Made by a program: the position numbers and the translations under genes. From positions 1 through 37,772 of IMG/VR virus record IMGVR_UViG_2563366960_000009: 37,772 bases of DNA; one strand, written 5' to 3'. The notes beneath the pieces were generated by a model. It was not told the DNA's origin. It ran no database searches and saw only the letters and a list, made by a program, of their open reading frames with translations. Every line of letters starts with the position of its first letter. The stretch's first letter is position 1. Source of the stretch: a virus (Duplodnaviria > Heunggongvirae > Uroviricota > Caudoviricetes). This document shows, one piece after another, positions 1 through 37,772 of this stretch.

Positions 1-1005
1 TTAATCCCCCGTGGACACTGCGTGGACACTCACGCCACCTTTCAGCGGATTAAGGGCCACCGCATCCTGCAGGTAATCCGGTGCAAAATGTGCATATGCC
101 ATTGTTTGCTGAATGGTTGCGTGACCAAGAATCTTCTGAAGTGCAATAATGTTTCCTCCGTTCATCACAAAATGGCTGGCGAACGTATGCCGCAGCACAT
201 GTGCAGCCTGGCCTTTTGGCAAATCGGGCTTAACTCTTTTCAGCGCCAGACAGAATTCCCGGTACTTCACCTCAAACAAGCTCCCTGTTTCTCTGGTTCT
301 GATCGCCTCACAAACCGCCTGCGAAATTGGCACCGTTCTCTTCCGGCCATTTTTGGTTTCAAGAAACGTTACACGGTTATGAACTATCTGTTCACCACGA
401 AGCTTACAAGCTTCACTCCAGCGCGCCCCTGTGCTTAAACACAAAAGCGCAACACGCCAGTAGTCGCCCTCCAGTGTATCGAGCAATAGCGCTACTTCCT
501 TCTGGGACAGGAAAGCCATCTCTCGTGGGGATACATAAAGAATAGAAATCCCCCTTACCGGATGCTCTGCATCCCAGAGGCCTATTTTCTTCAGTACGGT
601 AAACATTCCGGATAACCGATTCATGTATCTGTTAGCAGATGACGGTTTCAATCCATCAGCTATCTTTTGAGAACGCCACGCGATAATTTTCAGCTTATCA
701 AGATCCACAGCCTGCATATCAGCGCCAAGCTCATTGATTATGTTGCGCAGTTGTTTTCGGTCTTCTTCCGCCTTACGCCTGTGCTGGCCGTGATACATCC
801 ACCACAACTCAAGCAAATCATTTAGCGTTCGACGATCACGGTAGCCCTGTATATATTCCCGCTTTTCAGCGTTCGCCATGATGTAGCGTTCAGTGGCCAC
901 CGCTACCGATTTTTTGTCAAATACCTTACGCACGCGCTTTCCCTTGCGTCCGTTCGGCCTGATGTCCAGCAAATAACGACCATCTTCGAGCTTCTTAATC
1001 GACAT
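1..1005 (-). CDS. int: Phage integrase, tyrosine recombinase (P2 Int-like)
   Basis: ORF 1..1020 on the minus strand; the first codon in the track is a non-ATG start, so the ATG at 1005 is preferred (MSIKKLEDGRY...). C-terminal LRHTFASH...GHATIQQTMAYAH resembles the tyrosine-recombinase catalytic region. Position at the prophage end next to the repressor matches P2 organisation. Confidence 0.9.
   Translation of the reverse strand: MSIKKLEDGRYLLDIRPNGRKGKRVRKVFDKKSVAVATERYIMANAEKREYIQGYRDRRTLNDLLELWWMYHGQHRRKAEEDRKQLRNIINELGADMQAVDLDKLKIIAWRSQKIADGLKPSSANRYMNRLSGMFTVLKKIGLWDAEHPVRGISILYVSPREMAFLSQKEVALLLDTLEGDYWRVALLCLSTGARWSEACKLRGEQIVHNRVTFLETKNGRKRTVPISQAVCEAIRTRETGSLFEVKYREFCLALKRVKPDLPKGQAAHVLRHTFASHFVMNGGNIIALQKILGHATIQQTMAYAHFAPDYLQDAVALNPLKGGVSVHAVSTGD
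11..29. repeat. Putative attL core: gtggacactgcgtggacac, direct-repeat partner of 36592..36610
   Basis: A 19-bp sequence recurs at 36592..36610 with one mismatch (14 bp perfect, cactgcgtggacac). It overlaps the 3' end of int, as is common for att cores. Confidence 0.5.
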
Positions 1006-1101
1006 TGCGAAGCCCTCCAATGAACCGCTCTACAATTTCTCCAGCCTCTTTCCAGCAATAATCAGACCAGACAAAAAGCAGGTCTAACCAGTTTTCTGGC
1101 C

Positions 1102-4649: not shown

Positions 4650-4853
4650 ATGAACAAAAAGACCTGGTTTCGCGCATACATGTGGGCGCTGGTATGCGTC
4701 CTCGTCTCTCTCATTCTGTATGCAGGACTACTCCCCCGAATGATTTCATCAGACAGCTCCTTCCTGGTATTGCTGGGAATTTTCATTGCCATGCTGTACC
4801 CGGCAGGCGTTGTTCGCCTTTTCAGTAAGTACATCAAGGAAATCAAACAATGA
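4650..4853 (+). CDS. Small two-helix membrane protein, partner of the SPFH lipoprotein
   Basis: 67 aa with two hydrophobic helices (WALVCVLVSLILYAGLL and FLVLLGIFIAMLYPAGVV); stop overlaps the ATG of the next gene (ATGA). Confidence 0.55.
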   Translation: MNKKTWFRAYMWALVCVLVSLILYAGLLPRMISSDSSFLVLLGIFIAMLYPAGVVRLFSKYIKEIKQ

Positions 4854-5680
4854 AGAAATTCAAACTCTTTCAGATTCTCCCGCTTTTTGCCGCCATCCTG
4901 CTGGTTGGTTGCGATCGCGTTGAGCCAGGTAATGTGGGCATCAAAGTCAACAAACTGGGCGACGACAAAGGCGTCGGTGAAGTGGTTGGCGTTGGCCGCT
5001 ACTGGACAGGCTGGAATACAGAGGTTTACATCTTCCCGACCTTCAAACAAATGAAGACTTACGATGAGCCGTTCAACTTCCAGATGAGTGACGGCACAAC
5101 CATCGGCTATCACATCGGCGTGGCCTACAAAGTTGATCCATCCAAAGTTACCACGGTGTTTCAGACCTACCGCAAAGGCGTGGACGACATTACCGACACT
5201 GACCTGCGCCAGAAGATCGCCGATGCACTCAACCGACTGGCCAGCAAAATGACCACCGATAAGTTTATCGACGGTGGTAAGTCTGAACTGCTGGATTCAG
5301 CACTTAAAGATATTCAGGAAGAGATGACCCCCATCGGTATTCAGGTCATGAGCCTCTCTTATGTCGGTAAACCGGAATATCCGCCAACCGTTATCGACAG
5401 CATTAACGCCAAAGTCACGGCAAACCAGAAAACCCTGCAACGCGAACAGGAAGTCAAGCAACGCGAAGCAGAAGCCAACATGTTGCGCGCAGAAGCTGCC
5501 GGACAGGCCGATGCCATTCGCACAAAAGCCCAGGCTGAAGCCGACGCCATTCGTTTACGCGGCGAAGCTCTGCGCCAGAATCCCGGTGTTATGGAGCTGG
5601 AAGCGATCAACAAATGGAACGGCACGCTGCCGCAATACATGACCAGTAACACCGCTGTTCCGTTCGTTCCCGTGAAGTAA
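4850..5680 (+). CDS. SPFH/band-7 (prohibitin/stomatin-like) lipoprotein
   Basis: 276 aa. N-terminal signal peptide with lipobox LLVGC. C-terminal Ala/Glu/Arg/Gln-rich coiled-coil (QREQEVKQREAEANMLRAEAAGQADAIRTKAQAEADAIRLRGEALRQNP) typical of SPFH proteins. Confidence 0.7.
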   Translation: MKKFKLFQILPLFAAILLVGCDRVEPGNVGIKVNKLGDDKGVGEVVGVGRYWTGWNTEVYIFPTFKQMKTYDEPFNFQMSDGTTIGYHIGVAYKVDPSKVTTVFQTYRKGVDDITDTDLRQKIADALNRLASKMTTDKFIDGGKSELLDSALKDIQEEMTPIGIQVMSLSYVGKPEYPPTVIDSINAKVTANQKTLQREQEVKQREAEANMLRAEAAGQADAIRTKAQAEADAIRLRGEALRQNPGVMELEAINKWNGTLPQYMTSNTAVPFVPVK

Positions 5681-9621: not shown

Positions 9622-10581
9622 ATGAAAATTTGTATCGACGACGGCTCCACCAACATCAAGCTGGCATGGACTGAGAACGGCGAACACCGCAACGCCATCA
9701 GCCCGAACAGCTTCAAGTCGGAATGGTCTGCGCCGTTCGGTGGCTCGCAGCCTGCGAACTACATGCTTGATGGCGTGCGCTATGGTTTTGATCCGGTCAG
9801 CGATCGCTTTGTCCAGACGACCGACACGCAATACCAGTACAGCGATGTGAATGTAATCGCCATTCACCACGCGCTGGTCAAATCAGGCATCACGCCACAG
9901 GAGGTGGATGTGGTTGTCACCCTGCCACTGAGCGAGTATTTCGACACAAACGCCCAGCCGGATATGACCAACATCAACCGCAAAAAAGCGAACGTTATGC
10001 GCCCGGTGGAGTATCAGAACAGTGAGGCATTCACTATCCGTAACGTGCGGGTTATGCCTGAATCCATTCCGGCTGGCTTTAAAGCACTGGCTGACATGAG
10101 TCCGTTTGAATCCCTGCTGATTGTGGATTTGGGCGGAACCACGCTGGATGTGGCAAAGGTTCAGGGGCAACTGGCAGGTATCAGCCAGGTGTTTTGCGAT
10201 CCACACGTAGGCGTTTCTCTGATGGCCGATGCCGTGCTGTCGGTGATGGCCACCAACGGTATGCGCACCAGTCACCACATCGCCAATACCATTATCGAAC
10301 ATCGCCACGATGAAGCCTGGCTGCGCCAGCACATCCACAATGACGCGCATTACGCCAGCCTGATGGCAGTTATTCGTGAAAAGGAGGAAACACTGAAACA
10401 ACGCGTGATCCGCGCGCTGGCGGGTTTTTCGGGTTACGGGCGGGTGATGGTTGTAGGTGGAGGAGCGGAGATTGTGGCACCCGCTATCCGCGAAGCCTGC
10501 GGAGTTAATGCGACTTTCATCGCGGACGGGGTGCCACAATTTGCTCTGGTTAATGGGCTGTACGCAATGGACAAGGAGTAA
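9622..10581 (+). CDS. parM: ParM/StbA-like actin-family partition ATPase
   Basis: 319 aa. N-terminus MKICIDDGSTNIKLAW closely resembles plasmid R1 ParM (..FIDDGSTNIKLQW, from memory); later LLIVDLGGTTLDV and VMVVGGGAEIV match actin-fold phosphate-binding motifs. Confidence 0.8.
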   Translation: MKICIDDGSTNIKLAWTENGEHRNAISPNSFKSEWSAPFGGSQPANYMLDGVRYGFDPVSDRFVQTTDTQYQYSDVNVIAIHHALVKSGITPQEVDVVVTLPLSEYFDTNAQPDMTNINRKKANVMRPVEYQNSEAFTIRNVRVMPESIPAGFKALADMSPFESLLIVDLGGTTLDVAKVQGQLAGISQVFCDPHVGVSLMADAVLSVMATNGMRTSHHIANTIIEHRHDEAWLRQHIHNDAHYASLMAVIREKEETLKQRVIRALAGFSGYGRVMVVGGGAEIVAPAIREACGVNATFIADGVPQFALVNGLYAMDKE

Positions 10582-10960: not shown

Positions 10961-11296
10961 ATGCAACGCATTGACAGAGAAAAAGCGCAGCGACTGATTG
11001 AGCGGATGGAAGCGCTGGCGAAAGAAGAAAATGTCAACATCCAAAAAATAGCTGAATGTGGCCAGATAGTTCTTCGTCGTGAAAAAGACCTCAAACAACT
11101 GATGTCTGGCGAAACCAGCAAAACATGGACTTCAGGTGAGGAGACGATTTATTGCAGCTTCTGCAATAAATCCCAGTACGAAGTCACAAAGGTGATTGCC
11201 GGACCGTCTGTTTACATCTGCAATGAGTGCGTTGATTTGTGCAATGAAGTTATCAGGAGAGAAGTGACAGACCATGAAGAAAAAACGCATGAATGA
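10961..11296 (+). CDS. Small protein carrying a ClpX-type N-terminal C4 zinc-binding domain and no AAA+ module
   Basis: 111 aa. Residues about 64-100, [35 protein letters not shown], closely match the ClpX zinc-binding domain consensus (CxxC...CxxC). N-terminal half is a predicted helical region. Confidence 0.7.
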
Positions 11297-11462
11297 CGAA
11301 TTTGACGGCTTTTAATTTTATCGGGGCGCACTGTCGCCCTGCATGGAGAAAAACAATAAAAAAGATGAATAACTGCTCATGTCAGACGCGCTGCGGGCAA
11401 GTCTGGCACCCTGCCCTGTCTCCGCAAAGGCTGTTGTCTTAACACGACAGAGTATGCCAGCA

Positions 11463-11870
11463 TTAAATATAATCTTCTTCGTAGTCGCTGATTAATTCAT
11501 TGCCATAATCAGACAGCAATTTCAAAGCAAAGGTAACTTCCTCAAGGGTAGCTATCCCCATTGCTGAAAACACCGTTAATTTAACCAGCAGCAGGGAGTT
11601 TGAAAGTTCGGAAGAGTTCATCATTAAAAATATTGATGCAGCCTGAAAAGCTGTGCGTTTATTCCCATCATGAAAGGCATGAGCCTTGGCTATACCAATC
11701 AAATACATAGCAGCCAGAGCATGAATATCATCAACCCCTTCATAGTAGTGTAGTGTCCTGACGCGATTTAAAGCACCTTCAAGTAGCCCGTCATTGGCAT
11801 TTCCGCTCTGGGGTAAAGTTTCAGCATGGATACGTTCTACTTGTTCTTTTGACAAAAACACTATGTCCAT
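11463..11870 (-). CDS. doc: Doc-family (Fic fold) toxin
   Basis: 135 aa with the Doc motif HAFHDGNKRTA (HxFx[DN]GNKR); start overlaps the stop of the upstream antitoxin (ATGA). Confidence 0.8.
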   Translation of the reverse strand: MDIVFLSKEQVERIHAETLPQSGNANDGLLEGALNRVRTLHYYEGVDDIHALAAMYLIGIAKAHAFHDGNKRTAFQAASIFLMMNSSELSNSLLLVKLTVFSAMGIATLEEVTFALKLLSDYGNELISDYEEDYI

Positions 11871-12226
11871 CAGTTATCCTCAAGCTTTTTAATGATATCC
11901 GCATGTTTTTCTCTTGTACGCTTCATTGCATCTTCAAAAGACAATCCTTTTTTTCTCTGTGCGACAAGAGCTGGATGACGTTTTTCCAGATCTCTCACTG
12001 CATTTATTAAGAGTGGTTGCTTCATTTTGTTTATTTGATCCCGCAGTTTTTTGGTTTTGCCAAGGACAGCCCGTATTTCAGGACTAAGATCAGAACCAGC
12101 AAGAACAACATCCTTCCCTCCCTGCGCCGTGATAACGACACTGCCACCGGAAGAAAGGTAATCCAGAATTTCACTCAGGTTCTCACGAAATTCATCATCA
12201 GTTACAGTTTTCATATTCATTTCCAT
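11870..12226 (-). CDS. phd: Phd/YefM-like antitoxin
   Basis: 118 aa immediately upstream of and translationally coupled to doc; N-terminal region is consistent with a Phd/YefM fold. Confidence 0.65.
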   Translation of the reverse strand: MEMNMKTVTDDEFRENLSEILDYLSSGGSVVITAQGGKDVVLAGSDLSPEIRAVLGKTKKLRDQINKMKQPLLINAVRDLEKRHPALVAQRKKGLSFEDAMKRTREKHADIIKKLEDN

Positions 12227-33115: not shown

Positions 33116-33272
33116 AGCTTCAGCCCCTTGTATCCGTTAAATGATTCGGCAACAATCATCACCCACCACGCGCGTAATCTCACCCCTGCGCCGTTCTCCC
33201 GACCCGGCGACAACAAAAAGCAGTAACCCCCTCCGCACGCACATGCGACCATGCCGCACAGGGAGGGAACAG

Positions 33273-34382
33273 ATGACCGATACCACCATGCAATTGCTCA
33301 GTCAGGGCACAGACCCCGTGAAAATGCCGGATTTTGATATTCTCGCGGAGGGTAAAACGCTGTCAGGCGTGGCAGAGCGCCTGATGAGCCTGTCACTGAC
33401 CGACAACCGGGGATTTGACGCGGACCAGCTCACCATCACGCTGGATGATGCGGATGGTCAGTTGCAGCTACCGCCACGGGGCGCGCGCCTGACGGTTCTC
33501 ATTGGCTGGAAAGGAGAACCGCTGACAGAAAAAGGCACTTACATTGTTGATGAAATCGCTCACGAAGGACCGCCGGACAGGCTGACTGTTTCAGCCAGAA
33601 GCGCAGATTTTCGGGATGAATTTAACGTTAAACGTGAGGTGTCCTGGCATGATGTGACCGTTGAGCGTGTGGTATCCGCCATCGCTCATCGGTATGGTCT
33701 GAAACCGCAAATCAGCGAAATGCTGATTGATATCGAAATCGACCACGCCGACCAGACCGAAGAAAGCGACATATCCTTCCTTACGCGCATGGCGGAAATG
33801 CTGGGCGCAATCACCACGGTAAAAAGCGGCAATCTGTTATTCATCATGCCAGGTGGTGGCGTGAACGCACAGGGCCAGCCGTTGCCCTCATTCGCCATTA
33901 CACGCAGCAGCGGCGATCGCCATCAGTTCCGCATTGCTGACCGCGAGGCGTATACGGGGGTACGCGCCTACTGGCTTGATCTTAATTACGGGAAAAAGAA
34001 AAAAGTCAGCGTGAAACGCCGTAAACCGCCAAAACCCAAAAAGGAGAAAAGCAGCAGCCGTGAAGGTGATTATATGGAAGGCGCGGAAGGCAATGTGTTT
34101 GTGTTACGCAAGACTTATCAGAACGAGCAGGCAGCAAGACGCGCAGCGGCGGCAAAGTGGCAGCAACTACAACGCGGAGCCGCATCATTCTCCATCACGC
34201 TGGCGCGTGGACGTGCAGAACTCTACCCCGAAATGCATGGCACGGTAACAGGATTTAAAAGCGAGATTGATAATCAGGACTGGATCATTGCAAAAGCCGA
34301 GCACACCATTGATAATAGCGGCTTTACCACGCAGCTTGAGCTTGAGGCAAAAATCCCGGAATGGATAGCGGAAACAGAGTGA
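33273..34382 (+). CDS. Tail protein D-like (late gene D)
   Basis: ATG at 33273 with GGGAGG site (the longer track ORF from 33141 is Pro/Arg-rich and lacks a site); about 370 aa; followed by ogr as in P2. Confidence 0.8.
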   Translation: MTDTTMQLLSQGTDPVKMPDFDILAEGKTLSGVAERLMSLSLTDNRGFDADQLTITLDDADGQLQLPPRGARLTVLIGWKGEPLTEKGTYIVDEIAHEGPPDRLTVSARSADFRDEFNVKREVSWHDVTVERVVSAIAHRYGLKPQISEMLIDIEIDHADQTEESDISFLTRMAEMLGAITTVKSGNLLFIMPGGGVNAQGQPLPSFAITRSSGDRHQFRIADREAYTGVRAYWLDLNYGKKKKVSVKRRKPPKPKKEKSSSREGDYMEGAEGNVFVLRKTYQNEQAARRAAAAKWQQLQRGAASFSITLARGRAELYPEMHGTVTGFKSEIDNQDWIIAKAEHTIDNSGFTTQLELEAKIPEWIAETE

Positions 34383-34422: not shown

Positions 34423-34683
34423 ATGTTCCGTTGTCCGCTTTGTGGCGCATCTGCCCGTATCCGCACCAGTCGTCCGGAAAATGATTCAAACACCGTGCGG
34501 CAAAAGTATTACCAGTGTAACAATCTGGAATGCGGCGTATGCTTCTCAACACTGGAAGCTTTCCATAAATTCACATCAAAACACGCCTCCGGCGTTCACT
34601 CTTCAGAAGGTATCCCGTGGCATGATCTGCCAGCTTCACACAGGGGAAACAATCAGATGAGTTTGCCTTTATCTCAGAATTAA
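34423..34683 (+). CDS. ogr: Ogr/Delta-type zinc-finger late-gene transcriptional activator
   Basis: MFRCPLCGASARIRTSR...YYQCNNLECGVCFSTLE resembles P2 Ogr (MFHCPLC...HQCQNVNCSATF, recalled); CxxC...CxxC zinc finger. Confidence 0.85.
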   Translation: MFRCPLCGASARIRTSRPENDSNTVRQKYYQCNNLECGVCFSTLEAFHKFTSKHASGVHSSEGIPWHDLPASHRGNNQMSLPLSQN

Positions 34684-34771
34684 CAGGCAGAATTGCCGGA
34701 GTAACAAAAAAGCGATAGATTACGTGCGGGTGCCTTTCGGCTGATGGTCGGAGGGAATACCCGAAGGCCAG

Positions 34772-34957
34772 ATGTGGAAAGGCCCCGAGTCAACTTTAAC
34801 GTTAACCCGAGGCCCTAACCATCTACCCTTAGCAAGTGATAGGTTAGCGCCTCCCCGAAAAAGGAGCAAGCGCTATGTCGCAAAAATCGCTTACGGCCAT
34901 CACATTCTGCGTGACGGCAATCCTCATCATCTGGATGCTGCACGGTTCGCTGTGTGA
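34772..34957 (+). CDS. Possible mok-like overlapping reading frame of a hok-type locus
   Basis: 61-aa ORF starting about 100 bp upstream of the hok-like ATG and overlapping it in a different frame, as in hok/mok/sok loci. The protein itself has no recognisable features. Confidence 0.3.
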   Translation: MWKGPESTLTLTRGPNHLPLASDRLAPPRKRSKRYVAKIAYGHHILRDGNPHHLDAARFAV

Positions 34958-35015
34958 AATACGGATGAGCTTCTGGGGAGCGGAGTTTGCGGCGTTCTTA
35001 CAGTGTAAGCAGTAA
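34875..35015 (+). CDS. Hok/Gef-family type I toxin peptide
   Basis: 46 aa, below the ORF-track cutoff: MSQKSLTAITFCVTAILIIWMLHGSLCEIRMSFWGAEFAAFLQCKQ. N-terminal TM helix and the SLCEIR...AAF signature shared with Hok; AAGGAG site upstream. Confidence 0.6.
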   Translation: MSQKSLTAITFCVTAILIIWMLHGSLCEIRMSFWGAEFAAFLQCKQ

Positions 35016-35024
35016 GGAAACCGC

Positions 35025-35046
35025 GACGGGGGAGTAATCCCCCGTC
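35025..35046 (+). terminator. Perfect 9-bp stem-loop (gacggggga-gtaa-tcccccgtc) just after the hok-like stop
   Basis: Read directly; could be the 3' structural element of a hok mRNA or a terminator, though no U-tract follows. Confidence 0.4.
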
Positions 35047-35277
35047 AATCGGTTGCTAGGGTAAGGTCGATAAGGCACCCTATCTCACAGCTCTAAATGC
35101 AAAAATTCCATGAAACTGTGGGATTTTTGCATCACATACTGATACAGACCAGCCCTTCTATATGCCTCACTCTATACCAGCTAATCAATTGACACTTATC
35201 AATAAAAATAAATCTGATAAAATCAAAATGTTTTGTAACAAATATCAACTCGTATTAATCCAAAGGAGGCGGATTAC

Positions 35278-35610
35278 ATGGCATTAATCAAATGTCCTGA
35301 ATGCCAGAAAGAGGTGAGCGATTCAGCATTGTATTGCCCTGCTTGTGGTAAACAACTGCAAAAACTTAAGCGTTCATTTTTTGGACGGATCATTAAGTGG
35401 GTTTTTATATTATTTAATATTTTTATGATCTATACGCTTTTAGTTGGACTAGGAGGCACTAGTGAAATAATAAATAATGCCACATCCGATGCCGAAAAAG
35501 CCGGTGCAGTTATTGGTACAGGCTTAGGTTTAATTACCATTGGAAGCTTATGGGTTATTGGCGATATCATTATCGGAATTTTAGTATTTCTTACTAAACC
35601 AAAGGGATAA
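35278..35610 (+). CDS. Zinc-ribbon membrane protein (N-terminal CxxC-x10-CxxC, two transmembrane helices)
   Basis: 110 aa; CPECQKEVSDSALYCPACG then two long hydrophobic helices; AAGGAGG site; markedly AT-rich codon usage. Confidence 0.7.
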   Translation: MALIKCPECQKEVSDSALYCPACGKQLQKLKRSFFGRIIKWVFILFNIFMIYTLLVGLGGTSEIINNATSDAEKAGAVIGTGLGLITIGSLWVIGDIIIGILVFLTKPKG

Positions 35611-35614
35611 TAAA

Positions 35615-36508
35615 ATGAAAAATATAATTTTTTCTATAGGTGCATCATTTATATCAATTAGTGTACTGCCTGTTCACGCAGCAACTGAACATAAGAACTT
35701 CAATGCAGTACTCCAGTGCCGAGCAATAGAAAATAATAAAGACAGACTTTCTTGTTACGATAAGTCAATACAACCGACTCGAACGAAAGTTGCTGAAAAA
35801 TTCGAAAGCAGAGATCAATGCCCTGATGAGAAAGATGATGATAGACGTTTATCTTGTTATGATCGTTTCTTTTCTCCAACATTTACTCCATCTGTAAACT
35901 CAAAATCTAAAACGGAAAAGCCAGTAACAACAGAGGCTCAGCAACCAAATCTTTCTGAGATATCTAAATGTCGTGCAGAAAATGATAAAGAAGCCAGACT
36001 AAACTGCTACGATAAACTATTCCCACAGGATAAAATCGCTCAAGCTGAATCAAAATTAGAGAAAGCCACAGATGTAGGAAAATGGCACACATCCATTACT
36101 ACATCGCCAATTGATGATTCGAAAAATGTAATTTTATCGTTAGAAAGTGATGATTATATCAGAACTCCATTTGGAGAAGCGGTTACTCCTACTCTTTTTA
36201 TAGCTTGCCGAGAAAAGAAAACCGAAGTATTTCTTAGTTGGGATGTATATTTAGGCCTTGAACAAACCAGCATGCTTTATCGCCTTGATAAACAGAAAGC
36301 AGTTGAGCGAAACTGGCTAGTATCTACAGATACAAAGGCTGTTTTTTATAAAGGTAATGACATTGATTTCATCCGAAAACTAGCCAACTCAAGCAAAATG
36401 TATACAAAAATAACGCCTTATAATGAGAGCCCCGTAAGTGCAACTTTCAATTTAAACGGCCTGTCAAACGCGCTAAAACCGCTTCAAGCTGCTTGTAACT
36501 GGAAATAG
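35615..36508 (+). CDS. Secreted protein with three Cys-pair repeats and an uncharacterised C-terminal domain
   Basis: 297 aa; signal peptide ending VHA; repeats CRAIENNKDRLSCYDK, CPDEKDDDRRLSCYDR, CRAENDKEARLNCYDK; AT-rich; 4 bp downstream of the zinc-ribbon gene. Confidence 0.7.
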   Translation: MKNIIFSIGASFISISVLPVHAATEHKNFNAVLQCRAIENNKDRLSCYDKSIQPTRTKVAEKFESRDQCPDEKDDDRRLSCYDRFFSPTFTPSVNSKSKTEKPVTTEAQQPNLSEISKCRAENDKEARLNCYDKLFPQDKIAQAESKLEKATDVGKWHTSITTSPIDDSKNVILSLESDDYIRTPFGEAVTPTLFIACREKKTEVFLSWDVYLGLEQTSMLYRLDKQKAVERNWLVSTDTKAVFYKGNDIDFIRKLANSSKMYTKITPYNESPVSATFNLNGLSNALKPLQAACNWK

Positions 36509-36536
36509 TATTAAATCATGTGGCTTAGCCACAATC

Positions 36537-36580
36537 ACAGATAACACAAAGCCCGTGAAAACGGGCTTTGTGTTATCTGT
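36537..36580. repeat. 19-bp perfect inverted repeat (acagataacacaaagcccg-tgaaaa-cgggctttgtgttatctgt) after the cassette
   Basis: Read directly; no flanking U-tract on either strand; 12 bp from the right att repeat. Confidence 0.5.
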
Positions 36581-36591
36581 AACTCGAAAAT

Positions 36592-36610
36592 GTGGTCACT
36601 GCGTGGACAC
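36592..36610. repeat. Putative attR core: gtggtcactgcgtggacac, direct-repeat partner of 11..29
   Basis: 18 of 19 positions identical to 11..29. Confidence 0.5.
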
Positions 36611-36776: not shown

Positions 36777-37772
36777 ATGATACAACCTATTTCCGGCCCT
36801 CCTCCTGGGCAACCACCAGGTCAGGGAGATAACCTGCCGTCTGGCGCAGGCAATCAGCCTTTATCCAGTCAGCAACGTACTTCGCTGGAAAGCTTAATGA
36901 CGAAAGTGACCTCACTGACGCAACAACAAAGAGCAGAACTGTGGGCGGGTATCAGGCACGATATTGGTCTGTCGGGAGATTCACCGCTGCTTTCGCGTCA
37001 CTTCCCTGCCGCTGAGCATAATCTGGCGCAACGTCTGTTGGCCGCGCAAAAAAGCCATTCTGCCCGCCAGCTTTTAGCGCAATTAGGGGAGTATTTACGT
37101 CTGGGGAATAATCGTCAGGCGGTCACGGATTATATCCGTCATAACTTTGGTCAGACGCCGCTGAATCAGCTCTCACCGGAGCAATTAAAAACCATTCTCA
37201 CCCTGTTGCAGGAAGGGAAGATGGTTATTCCGCAACCACAGCAGCGCGAGGCGACCGACCGTCCTTTATTACCGGCGGAGCACAATGCGCTCAAACAGTT
37301 GGTGACCAAACTTGCGGCAGCAACGGGGGAACCCAGCAAACAGATCTGGCAATCGATGCTGGAACTTTCCGGGGTGAAAGATGGCGAGTTAATTCCAGCG
37401 AAACTGTTTAACCATCTGGTGACCTGGCTACAGGCGCGTCAGACGCTAAGCCAGCAAAATACGCCGACACTGGAATCACTACAGATGGCGCTAAAACAAC
37501 CTTTAGATGCCAGTGAACTGGCGGCGTTATCGGCATATATCCAGCAAAAATATGGCCTTTCTGCGCAATCATCGCTTTCTTCTGCCCAGGCCGAGGATAT
37601 TCTTAACCAGCTTTATCAACGGCGGGTTAAAGGGATTGAGCCGCGTGATATGCAACCGCTGCTTAATCCTTTTCCACCGATGATGGACACGTTGCAAAAT
37701 ATGGCAACGCGTCCCGCGCTGTGGATACTGTTAGTCGCGATTATCCTGATGCTGGTCTGGCTGGTTCGTTAA
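36777..37772 (+). CDS. flk: Host-flank membrane-anchored regulator, possibly the flagellar regulator Flk
   Basis: 331 aa; Pro/Gln-rich N-terminus MIQPISGPPPGQPPGQ and a single C-terminal TM anchor (ALWILLVAIILMLVWLV). Length and architecture match my recollection of enterobacterial Flk; the name is unverified. Lies outside the att repeat. Confidence 0.45.
   Translation: MIQPISGPPPGQPPGQGDNLPSGAGNQPLSSQQRTSLESLMTKVTSLTQQQRAELWAGIRHDIGLSGDSPLLSRHFPAAEHNLAQRLLAAQKSHSARQLLAQLGEYLRLGNNRQAVTDYIRHNFGQTPLNQLSPEQLKTILTLLQEGKMVIPQPQQREATDRPLLPAEHNALKQLVTKLAAATGEPSKQIWQSMLELSGVKDGELIPAKLFNHLVTWLQARQTLSQQNTPTLESLQMALKQPLDASELAALSAYIQQKYGLSAQSSLSSAQAEDILNQLYQRRVKGIEPRDMQPLLNPFPPMMDTLQNMATRPALWILLVAIILMLVWLVR

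Follow-up and report, generated by a model that had tools for sequence, protein, structure and literature searches.

VasI/TagO proteins (PF11319, TIGR03360; V. cholerae VCA0118, E. coli EDL933_RS01165) are best known from T6SS gene clusters, and a 2026 review still lists their role in the T6SS as unknown. A second relevant system is the anti-phage system Serratia Defence Island Candidate 4 (SDIC4), whose component SDIC4B, a small exported protein to which a VasI-like fold has been ascribed, was reported to give 10- to 200-fold phage protection when present alone (bioRxiv 10.1101/2024.01.28.577318). Among membrane proteins, DrpB (YedR) is a septal-ring protein of E. coli whose overproduction activates the Rcs phosphorelay; residue T89 is required for this induction, and the Rcs effect is a multicopy phenotype without known physiological meaning. 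RgsG of S. meliloti, a periplasmic protein with an IalB domain, belongs to a growth-zone/Tol-Pal network. Finally, temperate and lytic phages have genes, among them T4 Imm/Sp, P22 SieA and HK97 gp15, that bring about superinfection exclusion from the envelope and are thought to act at DNA entry.

In P2-like phages the slot from gpD/ogr to att, also called the 'third hotspot', is a known site of accessory cargo, and it lies outside the hotspots where the known defence systems of these phages concentrate. The two-gene cassette reported here belongs to a P2-like prophage (Peduoviridae, Xuanwuvirus-type) that adjoins flk, and lies at its right end. It was analysed within a stretch of 37,772 nucleotides, which as a whole is called the window.

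Results

The cassette segment covers positions 35050-36590 (1.5 kb), between ogr/hok and attR. The core repeats of attL (GTGGACACTGCGTGGACAC, positions 11-29) and attR (GTGGTCACTGCGTGGACAC, positions 36592-36610, no strand assigned) form direct repeat D8, with 18 of 19 bases identical, and the cassette lies inside them, as the initial annotation had stated. As attR marks where the prophage ends on the right, the cassette is phage-borne; the same cassette is found in the packaged phage genomes PhiSM, PhiR44_2, 500465-2 and P88_4B11. A sharp drop in base composition had also been claimed and taken as a sign of separate origin, and both points are borne out by our measurements. GC is 0.366 at 35050-36590 compared to 0.531 for the remaining prophage, and windowed GC at 35100-36582, the extent first proposed for the cassette, is 0.361. 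Elsewhere in the window, the lowest GC of any same-size segment is 0.434, with a mean of 0.533 and a standard deviation of 0.041, which puts the cassette about 4 standard deviations under the mean. By its composition the unit is foreign to the prophage. In related prophages the ogr-att slot is taken up by other cargo: hok by itself, an abhydrolase, a ZnR-TM2 protein or an unpaired ORF1. The cassette thus bears the marks of a moron, in that its GC differs from that of the flanking phage genes and it is present in some related phages and absent from others, and it is best explained as a phage-carried accessory module in the third hotspot of a P2-like prophage.

The first gene, ORF1 (35278-35610, plus strand), encodes 110 aa. 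It had been described as a zinc-ribbon membrane protein, which its four cysteines and two hydrophobic segments support. The cysteines (C6, C9, C20 and C23) make up an N-terminal C4 zinc ribbon matching Pfam Zn_Ribbon_1 (E 1.1e-7); this is followed by a basic juxtamembrane stretch, TM1 (~37-59), an 18-aa loop that includes SDAEKAGA, TM2 (~78-105) and the C-terminus TKPKG. The predicted topology is N-in/C-in, which would place the zinc ribbon in the cytoplasm and the short conserved loop in the periplasm. ORF1 belongs to phrog_6586, and its family comprises 338 cluster representatives at E <= 1e-10; homologues of ORF1 occur on at least 537 viral contigs. Mean column identity in the family alignment (A2) is 72%, and polar residues within the membrane helices are invariant. 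Invariant positions in or just after TM2 are W92, G95, I97, I98, G100, V103, T106, P108 and K109.

ORF2 (35615-36508, plus strand) encodes 297 aa and begins with a Sec-type signal peptide at about residues 1-22 (...VHA/A), recognised by hydropathy as an N-terminal hydrophobic segment, in agreement with its earlier description as a secreted protein. The three cysteine repeats reported at the same time are indeed there, but their spacing is C-x11-CYD(K/R) and not x12; they form helical hairpins (residues 35-50, 69-84 and 119-134) with disordered linkers between them. The C-terminal domain that had been noted corresponds to a beta domain (~155-297) with C198 and C294, for which the structure model is confident, and the protein has eight cysteines in all. 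Together, the third hairpin and the beta domain constitute the Pfam VasI domain: PF11319 matches ORF2 with 88.8 bits (gathering threshold 26.5; E 4.6e-25), residues 118-296 covering model positions 1-184 of 184, and the extra hairpins give two further partial matches. Neither protein had been recognised in the initial annotation, and the pair had been put forward as the best candidate for an undescribed system. Both statements have to be revised, as ORF2 is a clear PF11319 member that PGAP/RefSeq names TagO and that was entered as 'T6SS VasI family' in a PhiSM cargo list in 2019, and as both ORF1 and ORF2 fall in PHROG families. Our literature search found no description of the conserved ORF1-ORF2 pairing.

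Both genes lie on the plus strand, closely packed into a single unit with a gap of 4 nt and a likely ribosome-binding site for ORF2 (AAAGGGA, 35601-35607) within the 3' end of ORF1, consistent with the operon-like layout that had been proposed. ORF1 has a Shine-Dalgarno sequence of its own, AAGGAGG at 35263-35269, 8 nt 5' of the ATG. Failure of the pair to co-occur outside the source genome had been named as grounds for refutation, and these grounds fall away because the pair is widespread in E. coli, where 240 of 5,426 complete genomes carry the cassette (about 4%), in sequenced Peduoviridae and in other enterobacterial genera. Among the best 56 full-length ORF1 loci in IMG/VR, ORF2 lies directly downstream in 37, and the pair follows ogr in 36 of these. 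In E. coli, Klebsiella, Raoultella, Brenneria, Dickeya and Salmonella, other P2-like prophages have diverged copies of the cassette in the ogr-att slot.

The PhiSM cassette is 99.5% identical, intact pairs persist in different genera at protein identities between 99% and about 40-60%, and the identities of ORF1 and ORF2 drop together from locus to locus. Pairing is not obligate, since each gene is also found without its partner: ORF1 in some phages and on Haemophilus and Pantoea chromosomes, where homologues are kept as single genes, and ORF2 in Photobacterium, in Shewanella and at one P2-like prophage end in Pantoea. Broken copies occur as well, ORF2 being split on ETEC plasmids and some chromosomes and ORF1 in Izhakiella. 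Both genes are under purifying selection, with dN/dS of 0.13 to 0.39 for the cassette and of 0.39 and 0.09 for ORF1, in three comparisons from which the more distant ORF2 pairs were left out, their synonymous sites being saturated. In addition, two natural gene fusions join a zinc ribbon to a VasI domain. The L114 protein, from a metagenome-assembled genome, has 347 aa with both domains in one reading frame. The other, P0052, is one sequence on one contig and looks like a one-off deletion that joined ORF1 at about codon 29 to the ORF2 signal peptide, and for this reason it weighs little by itself as Rosetta-stone evidence.

ORF2 is homologous to the T6SS proteins VasI/TagO across the whole VasI domain, and is 26% identical over 195 aa (E 3e-11) to EDL933 VasI of E. 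coli T6SS-2. In both, an N-terminal RLxCYD hairpin stapled by cysteines precedes a beta domain that has C-x-W at its C-terminal end, and both are exported. They differ in that the hairpin is triplicated in ORF2 (family copy number 1 to 3), in that the T6SS VasI gene is flanked by tssH and tssA, both in Vibrio and in E. coli T6SS-2, whereas ORF2 lies at a prophage end near ogr, hok and flk, and in that T6SS clusters do not show the zinc-ribbon membrane partner. Against TIGR03360, ORF2 scores 75.9 bits, under the equivalog cutoff of 124.2, compared to 257.4 bits for the genuine EDL933 VasI; phage-type relatives of ORF2 (P0048, P0068 and P0090) score 35 to 57 bits. A tblastn search found none of tssA, tssC, tssH, tssK and tssM within 8 kb of any of 18 species-level loci, and none in the window. 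These loci were collected by a pattern scan of genome contigs with a narrow ORF2 alignment and, because the patterns were strict, they are a sample and not a census. The closest relatives of ORF2 are all at P2-like prophage ends or are orphans. On the TIGR03360 score and the gene context we rejected ORF2 as a true T6SS component; judged by its sequence and its surroundings, it belongs to a separate, T6SS-independent branch of the VasI family.

The comparison with SDIC4 used the sequences of SDIC4A, SDIC4B and SDIC4E taken from the plasmid maps of the preprint (bioRxiv 10.1101/2024.01.28.577318). SDIC4B resembles ORF2 in being small, exported by Sec, rich in beta structure and associated with the name VasI, and each system consists of two genes on Enterobacterales DNA that is mobile or variable. 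SDIC4 is also the sole experimental precedent for phage protection by such a protein. However, SDIC4B and ORF2 have no sequence, profile or nearest-fold relationship: BLASTP gave no match between them, and hhalign gave a probability of 0.2% with the single sequence and 0.7% for family versus family (16-sequence alignment). Their Pfam families differ, that of SDIC4B being PF27224 and not PF11319. A model of P0153, the leading sequence in the SDIC4B-family alignment and 91% identical to SDIC4B, was built in the same manner as that of ORF2 and had no PDB match under E 0.3, IalB included, whereas ORF2 does match IalB. SDIC4A is an exported protein and ORF1 a zinc-ribbon membrane protein, and BLASTP of ORF1 showed no similarity to SDIC4A, the partner in subtype I, or to SDIC4E, which with SDIC4C and SDIC4D characterises subtype II, although in a four-gene SDIC4 subtype II construct a small multi-TM protein is encoded directly upstream of the SDIC4B copy. 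SDIC4 is found in BrxR-linked defence islands and the cassette at a P2-like prophage end, where we found no BrxR or WYL gene nearby. ORF2 was thus rejected as an SDIC4 member by BLASTP, hhalign, Pfam family, nearest PDB fold and partner. PADLOC returned no match for either protein of the cassette, a result that is only partly informative because its 2023 database predates SDIC4.

The IalB match comes from a PDB fold search with the ORF2 model (PDB 3DTD), and Pfam IalB (PF06776) scores 20.4 on ORF2 against a gathering threshold of 22.1. Proteins of the IalB (invasion-associated locus B) type are alphaproteobacterial and not phage-borne, unlike ORF2, and they are without the CYD hairpins of which ORF2 has three.

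The two-helix domain of ORF1 is weakly DrpB-like. The NCBIfam model of DrpB (NF038392) matches residues 28-109 over model positions 2-84 of 86 with 20.8 bits (E 3.6e-4), under the cutoff of 50, and ORF1 homologues have weak precomputed matches to PF28000 (DrpB). With hhalign, ORF1 and E. coli DrpB align over the whole two-helix domain (E 0.0016, probability 16%), with R-S-x-x-G-K, SD..AG and (L/Y)T(K/R)P(K/R) in register and DrpB T89 placed on the invariant T106 of ORF1. The two proteins are alike in the size of the membrane domain, in two-helix N-in/C-in topology with a periplasmic loop of ~20 aa, and in the motifs R-S-x-x-G-K, SD..AG and, at distal TMH2, T-(R/K)-P-(R/K). ORF1 also has the DrpB-type architecture of two TM helices, cytoplasmic termini (a topology predicted from hydropathy and the distribution of charges) and conservation strongest at distal TMH2. 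Relatives of this domain that are free of the zinc ribbon and of DrpB size exist. ORF1 and DrpB may be distantly related; the similarity is under every curated threshold, and ORF1 differs by its added N-terminal zinc ribbon and in being phage-borne and usually upstream of an exported protein.

Discussion

Features of the two sequences suggest that ORF1 would be inserted in the inner membrane with both termini in the cytoplasm, and that ORF2 would be exported by Sec and hold four disulfides, three of them stapling the helical hairpins and one lying in the beta domain. Because they are conserved neighbours, diverge together and have twice independently given fusions of zinc ribbon and TM to VasI, ORF1 and ORF2 probably act jointly, at the periplasmic face of the inner membrane. 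More speculatively, ORF2 might serve as a periplasmic binding module and ORF1 as a membrane anchor or signal transducer, with the result that the envelope of the lysogen would be changed, or guarded against envelope-crossing machines. The most likely effect would then be a narrow-range superinfection exclusion or defence acting at the stage of tail penetration or DNA entry. We therefore put forward tentatively, as a possible reading, that the pair is an envelope-level module of lysogenic conversion or exclusion. T4 Imm/Sp, P22 SieA and HK97 gp15 resemble it as small inner-membrane and/or periplasmic proteins of accessory genes; they have no homology to ORF1 or ORF2, and the class is defined by phenotype. 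Any exclusion exerted by the cassette would not be broad, as the heteroimmune phage PhiNP infects and lysogenises PhiSM lysogens, whose cassette is nearly the same as ours. In different phages ORF1 is followed by VasI-like, Excalibur-like and SNase-like proteins, and for this reason it could be a membrane adaptor of general use whose exported partners are interchangeable. A narrower proposal makes the pair an envelope-level immunity module of a new kind, in which the periplasmic VasI fold of ORF2 would recognise the tip or tube of an incoming contractile injection machine (myophage tail, tailocin or T6SS spike) and ORF1 would relay this to a cytoplasmic response; that response might be a block of DNA entry, depolarisation of the membrane or activation of Rcs. 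We regard this proposal as rather unlikely.

Some of the same observations can be read in other ways. If ORF1 were to behave like DrpB, with ORF2 as its periplasmic partner, the pair would be a modulator of envelope stress or division that alters the capsule, biofilm or division of the lysogen, and its effects on phages would be indirect. The DrpB models match ORF1 weakly yet over the whole domain, the shared motifs are in register down to the pairing of T89 with T106, DrpB-sized two-helix relatives without a zinc ribbon are known, and RgsG places a periplasmic IalB-domain protein in the growth-zone/Tol-Pal network. On the other hand, every DrpB score is under its curated cutoff, hhalign giving a probability of 16%, and such scores are inflated by hydrophobic segments; DrpB itself has neither a zinc ribbon nor a VasI partner, and its Rcs effect is a multicopy phenotype, so we judge a modulator of this kind to be fairly unlikely. 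It is also conceivable that the phage supplies a VasI/TagO that assists, tunes or blocks the T6SS of the host, or that shields the lysogen from T6SS attack, given that ORF2 is a real VasI homologue with the same hairpin-plus-beta-domain layout, that the role of VasI in the T6SS is still listed as unknown, and that P2 tails and the T6SS are related machines. This we consider quite unlikely, because ORF2 stays under the equivalog cutoff, tss markers are absent within 8 kb of the 18 species-level loci and from the window, and the closest relatives of ORF2 are at P2-like prophage ends or are orphans. Moreover, stable PhiSM lysogens are obtained with E. coli K-12 strains, which are not known to have a T6SS.

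The two-helix N-in/C-in layout predicted for ORF1 is shared by class II holins, and the genes adjoin the late regulator ogr, as might be expected of a lytic-cycle helper in which a holin- or antiholin-like ORF1 works with a periplasmic lysis or release factor and which is not expressed in the lysogen. Since the cassette is compositionally foreign and missing from many P2-like phages, it cannot be essential for lysis; ORF1 is also without a long charged C-terminal tail, and its homologues persist in Pantoea and Haemophilus as lone genes on the chromosome, all of which makes a lytic role very unlikely. That the cassette is a diverged SDIC4 member, a protein of VasI-like fold with its partner, would fit with SDIC4B being a small exported beta protein that is sufficient for defence, and with the multi-TM protein encoded directly upstream of it in the subtype II construct. 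With BLAST negative, hhalign at 0.2% and 0.7%, PF27224 in place of PF11319, an SDIC4B-family model that matches neither IalB nor any other PDB entry, SDIC4A unrelated to ORF1 and a window without a BrxR neighbour, such membership is highly improbable. As to inert hitch-hiking DNA or decaying genes, the AT-richness and foreign origin of the segment and the broken copies (ORF2 on ETEC plasmids and chromosomes, ORF1 in Izhakiella) would agree with them, but the purifying selection on both genes, the persistence of intact pairs from 99% to about 40-60% identity across genera and the 338 ORF1-family cluster representatives at E <= 1e-10 render this scarcely credible.

Returning to the proposed envelope-level module of lysogenic conversion or exclusion, the cassette brings to light what appears to be a large T6SS-independent branch of VasI on P2-like phages, usually accompanied by a highly conserved zinc-ribbon membrane protein. 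Being 1.5 kb long and present in the culturable phages PhiSM and P88, it is easily deleted or cloned. A phenotype would assign a function to cargo of about 4% of complete E. coli genomes, would test the ogr-att hotspot for envelope-acting systems missed by current defence finders, and could hint at the binding target of the VasI fold. Sensing of injection machines by ORF2, if true, would be the first functional handle on VasI/TagO in T6SS clusters; without a phenotype, the cassette is one more conserved prophage cargo pair.

The flanks of the two genes were also considered with respect to their expression. An AT-rich leader (35050-35277, plus strand) begins right after the terminator hairpin of hok (35024-35047). 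The TTGACA hexamer that had been pointed out in this AT-rich region is present at 35189-35194, and inspection of the sequence found no properly spaced -10 hexamer for it. The sole consensus-type promoter candidate is an extended -10 element, TTATCA-16-TGnTAAAAT, at 35196-35223; a promoter scan of the leader gave 5 promoter-like sites compared to 5.1 expected from shuffled sequence, which is no excess. An Rfam search of the cassette yielded chance-level matches only. Between the ORF2 stop codon and attR lies a perfect 20-bp stem-loop (36537-36580, no strand assigned), which the terminator scan did not call and which is not a canonical intrinsic terminator because it has no U-tract. Its RNA fold has an energy of -43.4 kcal/mol (z -8.8 versus shuffles), and it may be a transcript-end structure.

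Organization of the cassette

Our data show that the AT-rich segment between hok and attR is carried by the phage, is compositionally foreign to it and consists of two tightly coupled genes, both under purifying selection. The window is a P2-like prophage nearly throughout, with a tyrosine integrase gene at 1-1020 (minus strand), a 19-nt direct repeat forming attL (11-29) and attR (36592-36610), and the host gene flk starting at 36777 (NCBIfam, 507 bits). Ahead of the cassette lie gpD (33141-34382), an Ogr/Delta zinc-finger gene (34423-34683; Pfam E 5e-14) and a Hok/Gef-family toxin ORF (34875-35015; Pfam E 4e-7), whose terminator-like hairpin (35024-35047) bounds the cassette on the left, as attR does on the right. 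The initial annotation had pointed to a drop in base composition and an operon-like gene pair here, and both are borne out: its GC content is 0.366 compared to 0.531 in the remaining prophage, the lowest value among all other windows of the same size being 0.434, and ORF1 (35278-35610, 110 aa) and ORF2 (35615-36508, 297 aa) lie on the same strand, 4 nt apart. ORF1 has a good Shine-Dalgarno sequence ahead of its start, and ORF2 a weaker one within the 3' end of ORF1. ORF2 is followed by a hairpin (36537-36580; -43 kcal/mol, z -8.8) that pairs perfectly over 20 bp and lacks a U-tract. The TTGACA hexamer proposed upstream is present but lacks a properly spaced -10 element, and promoter-like matches in the cassette are no commoner than in shuffled sequence. 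With small corrections of this kind, the cassette is a real feature as first described.

A sok-like RNA match (34728-34888; Rfam RF01794, 42.7 bits, E 1e-7, short of the gathering score of 59) completes a hok/sok-type type I toxin-antitoxin module (34728-35015) directly 5' of the cassette. In most E. coli copies the module accompanies ogr and the cassette, as it does on ETEC plasmids that carry a piece of prophage.

The two proteins

ORF2 had gone unrecognised, yet its family is a named one: the protein scores 88.8 bits against Pfam VasI (PF11319; gathering score 26.5). With its Sec-type signal peptide and eight cysteines, it is probably located in the periplasm and stabilised by disulfide bonds. 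The three cysteine repeats reported earlier are real, although their spacing is C-x11-CYD(K/R) and not x12. In the AlphaFold model three helical hairpins, separated by disordered linkers, are followed by a beta domain that is modelled confidently (pLDDT >90 from about residue 155), and the last hairpin together with this beta domain makes up the canonical VasI domain. Homologues carry one, two or three hairpins and keep C119, R128, L129, C131, D133 and C198, with C294 nearly as constant.

ORF1 begins with a C4 zinc ribbon (Pfam Zn_Ribbon_1, E 1e-7), followed by two hydrophobic helices with an 18-residue loop between them. Since basic residues precede TM1 and follow TM2, both termini are predicted to be cytoplasmic; ORF1 would reside in the inner membrane, its zinc ribbon facing the cytoplasm. 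The family alignment has a mean column identity of 72%, in which N47 (TM1) and a C-terminal T-x-P-K are invariant and D96 (TM2) nearly so. Over its full length the membrane part matches DrpB (YedR) weakly: 20.8 bits (E 3.6e-4) against NCBIfam NF038392, whose cutoff is 50, weak precomputed matches of ORF1 homologues to Pfam PF28000, and an hhalign match to E. coli DrpB at E 0.0016 and 16% probability. This alignment sets 'LTKPK' of ORF1 opposite 'YTRPR' of DrpB and places the invariant T106 opposite DrpB T89, a residue essential to Rcs induction according to published work. An exhaustive profile search with ORF1 found 338 cluster representatives at E <= 1e-10, many of them proteins of 85-100 aa with the membrane domain and no zinc ribbon, and the DrpB model again matched weakly in 4 of the 10 tested. 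Remote homology of ORF1 and DrpB is plausible on these profile comparisons but not established.

Distribution of the pair

The possibility that the pair is confined to this genome clearly fails, as E. coli, phages and other genera carry it. Of 5,426 complete E. coli genomes, 240 carry the 1.5-kb cassette, and 225 of these show the full order ogr-hok-cassette-flk. Among sequenced Peduoviridae it occurs in Citrobacter phage PhiSM (99.5%), PhiR44_2, 500465-2 and Xuanwuvirus P88_4B11 (92%), and Klebsiella phage 3LV2017 has a version that is 69% identical. Another P2-like prophage, beside fieF, holds a diverged pair in the equivalent ogr-attR slot, with ORF1 at 72% nucleotide identity and ORF2 in a 215-aa one-hairpin form. 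ORF1 relatives are encoded on 537 IMG/VR contigs; in the best 56 full-length loci an ORF2 homologue follows immediately in 37, all but one of these pairs (36/37) come after ogr, and the identities of the two proteins drop in parallel. A scan in which a single genome represented each species yielded 18 ORF2-type loci; in eight of them ORF1 immediately precedes the ORF2-type gene (Enterobacter, Raoultella, two Klebsiella, Izhakiella, Brenneria, Salmonella and a contaminated MAG). The dN/dS values relative to the P88-type copy (ORF1 0.39, ORF2 0.13) and of ORF1 relative to the fieF-site copy (0.09) indicate that both genes are under purifying selection.

Pairing is frequent, not obligate. Lone ORF2-type genes are found in Photobacterium, Shewanella, Zobellella, Salinisphaera and others, as well as at one Pantoea P2-like prophage end, while ORF1 is the last gene in some prophages without ORF2 and has a lone chromosomal homologue in Haemophilus paracuniculus. 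In Pantoea (three loci, L008-L010) a standalone ORF1 homologue lies between cueR and copA, an integration site of P2-like prophages. Aberrant excision at a site of the cueR/copA type would leave the phage with ORF1 between ogr and att, oriented as in the present prophage, which is a possible route of acquisition; it is also possible that the Pantoea gene is the remnant of an old prophage end. At L010 a phage int comes right after the ORF1 homologue, and at a further locus, L007, a prophage ends at copA; the comparison also covered locus L038.

Where ORF1 homologues lack a VasI-like neighbour (IMG/VR loci L033, L051, L058 and L063-L066), another signal-peptide protein often follows immediately 3', among them an Excalibur calcium-binding domain protein, a staphylococcal-nuclease (SNase) homologue and several unknowns. 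This variety suggests that ORF1 may be a shared membrane partner of interchangeable exported proteins. One such homologue has a DUF7424 lipoprotein gene ahead of it. The E. coli P2-like prophage beside tamB/ytfP (L091-L093) ends in gpD, an alpha/beta hydrolase gene, ogr, hok and a gene for a 98-aa protein that combines a zinc ribbon with a TM2 membrane domain; a VasI-like gene (250 aa, two hairpins) converges on it from the opposite strand. Two natural fusions join zinc ribbon, TM segment and VasI domain in a single protein, one (P0052) at a P2-like prophage end and the other a 347-aa ORF in a Desulfobulbaceae MAG. Each of these items is modest; taken together, they suggest that small zinc-ribbon membrane proteins and exported domains of the VasI type are repeatedly linked in function. 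98-aa genes of the zinc ribbon-TM2 type also lie downstream of the ORF1-ORF2 pair in Salmonella (L108) and Izhakiella (L106).

Several copies call for comment. A 4.2-kb contig of the 'Planococcaceae bacterium UBA3378' MAG (DEQA01000038.1) carries an E. coli-type gpD-ogr-hok-cassette at 95-99% protein identity, and this Firmicutes occurrence is almost certainly bin contamination. On ETEC plasmids (NZ_LR883008.1, plasmid 3, and matches H53-H57) a fragment with ogr, hok, ORF1 and ORF2 adjoins IS elements and a group II intron; its ORF2 is broken into two ORFs, indicating a decaying prophage end that moved onto plasmids. The product labels of Citrobacter phage Shae_phiSM (OR565851.1) appear displaced by one gene: 'tagO' is on the 110-aa zinc-ribbon gene while the real VasI-like gene is 'hypothetical', and 'ogr' is on a 369-aa gpD-sized gene with 'late control gene D' on the gene beside it.

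Possible functions

The comparative data suggest that ORF1 and ORF2 act together at the inner membrane, and we speculate that the module would alter or guard the lysogen envelope. The effect that we tentatively favour would be a narrow-range block on incoming phages or related injection machines. A functional precedent is SDIC4, a two-gene anti-phage system (bioRxiv 10.1101/2024.01.28.577318) in which the exported SDIC4B is reported to have a VasI-like fold and to give 10- to 200-fold protection alone. Membership of the cassette itself in SDIC4, which we rate as very improbable, was rejected by BLAST, hhalign, Pfam and fold search alike: BLAST found no relationship of the SDIC4 sequences to ORF1 or ORF2, hhalign gave ORF2 and SDIC4B probabilities of 0.2% and 0.7%, SDIC4B belongs to PF27224 whereas ORF2 belongs to PF11319, and an SDIC4B-family model handled as for ORF2 did not find IalB (PDB 3DTD), which the ORF2 model hits. 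SDIC4 is therefore a precedent only and not the cassette's family. The 2019 PhiSM paper, which catalogued the ORF2-type gene at annotation level as 'T6SS VasI family protein' cargo, reports that PhiSM lysogens are infected and lysogenised by PhiNP, a heteroimmune phage; this argues against broad exclusion by the cassette.

Should the DrpB resemblance be genuine, the module might instead influence Rcs signalling or division in the manner of DrpB, which we consider unlikely. A role with the host T6SS is more doubtful still. ORF2 is homologous to T6SS VasI/TagO (26% identity to E. coli EDL933 VasI) but is not an equivalog: it scores 75.9 bits with TIGR03360 against a cutoff of 124.2, where EDL933 VasI, encoded between tssH and tssA, scores 257. 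None of five T6SS marker genes had a match within 8 kb of any of the 18 ORF2-type loci, and the function of TagO/VasI itself is still given as unknown in a 2026 review. We see very little probability in a lytic-cycle role for this pair behind ogr, and inert DNA, set against the purifying selection on both genes, is barely credible. These readings leave some room, as the function may be something not listed here.

That ORF2 has a named family and that its slot is a hotspot is already known. Judged by the searchable literature, three things appear to be new: the conserved pairing, a branch of VasI that is phage-borne and independent of T6SS, and the possible link to DrpB. Known defence systems of P2-like phages cluster between gpA and gpQ, downstream of gpL and around int, and three published hotspot papers, searched by term, mention neither VasI nor a zinc-ribbon protein (TagO was a search term in the first paper only).

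DUF1311/LprI-type genes occur near VasI-family genes in two unrelated contexts, adjoining an orphan VasI-like gene of Photobacterium phosphoreum (L005) and near hcp in the EDL933 T6SS-2 cluster (L098), which may be coincidence.

Other possible accessory genes of the prophage

A second low-GC patch (10961-12226, GC 0.41-0.44), presumably upstream of the portal-gene position in a P2 layout, holds three genes: one encodes a protein of 111 aa with a ClpX-type C4 zinc finger (E 3e-17), and on the opposite strand lies a Phd/YefM antitoxin and Fic/Doc toxin pair. The gene at 9622-10581 encodes a complete actin-like segregation protein of the ParM/StbA type (Pfam E 7e-82), which is unusual in an integrating phage. 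A 276-aa SPFH/Band 7 family protein (4850-5680, E 3e-31) with a lipoprotein-like N-terminus is encoded in the early region, with the repressor side on one flank and replication genes on the other, and is probably a further accessory gene.
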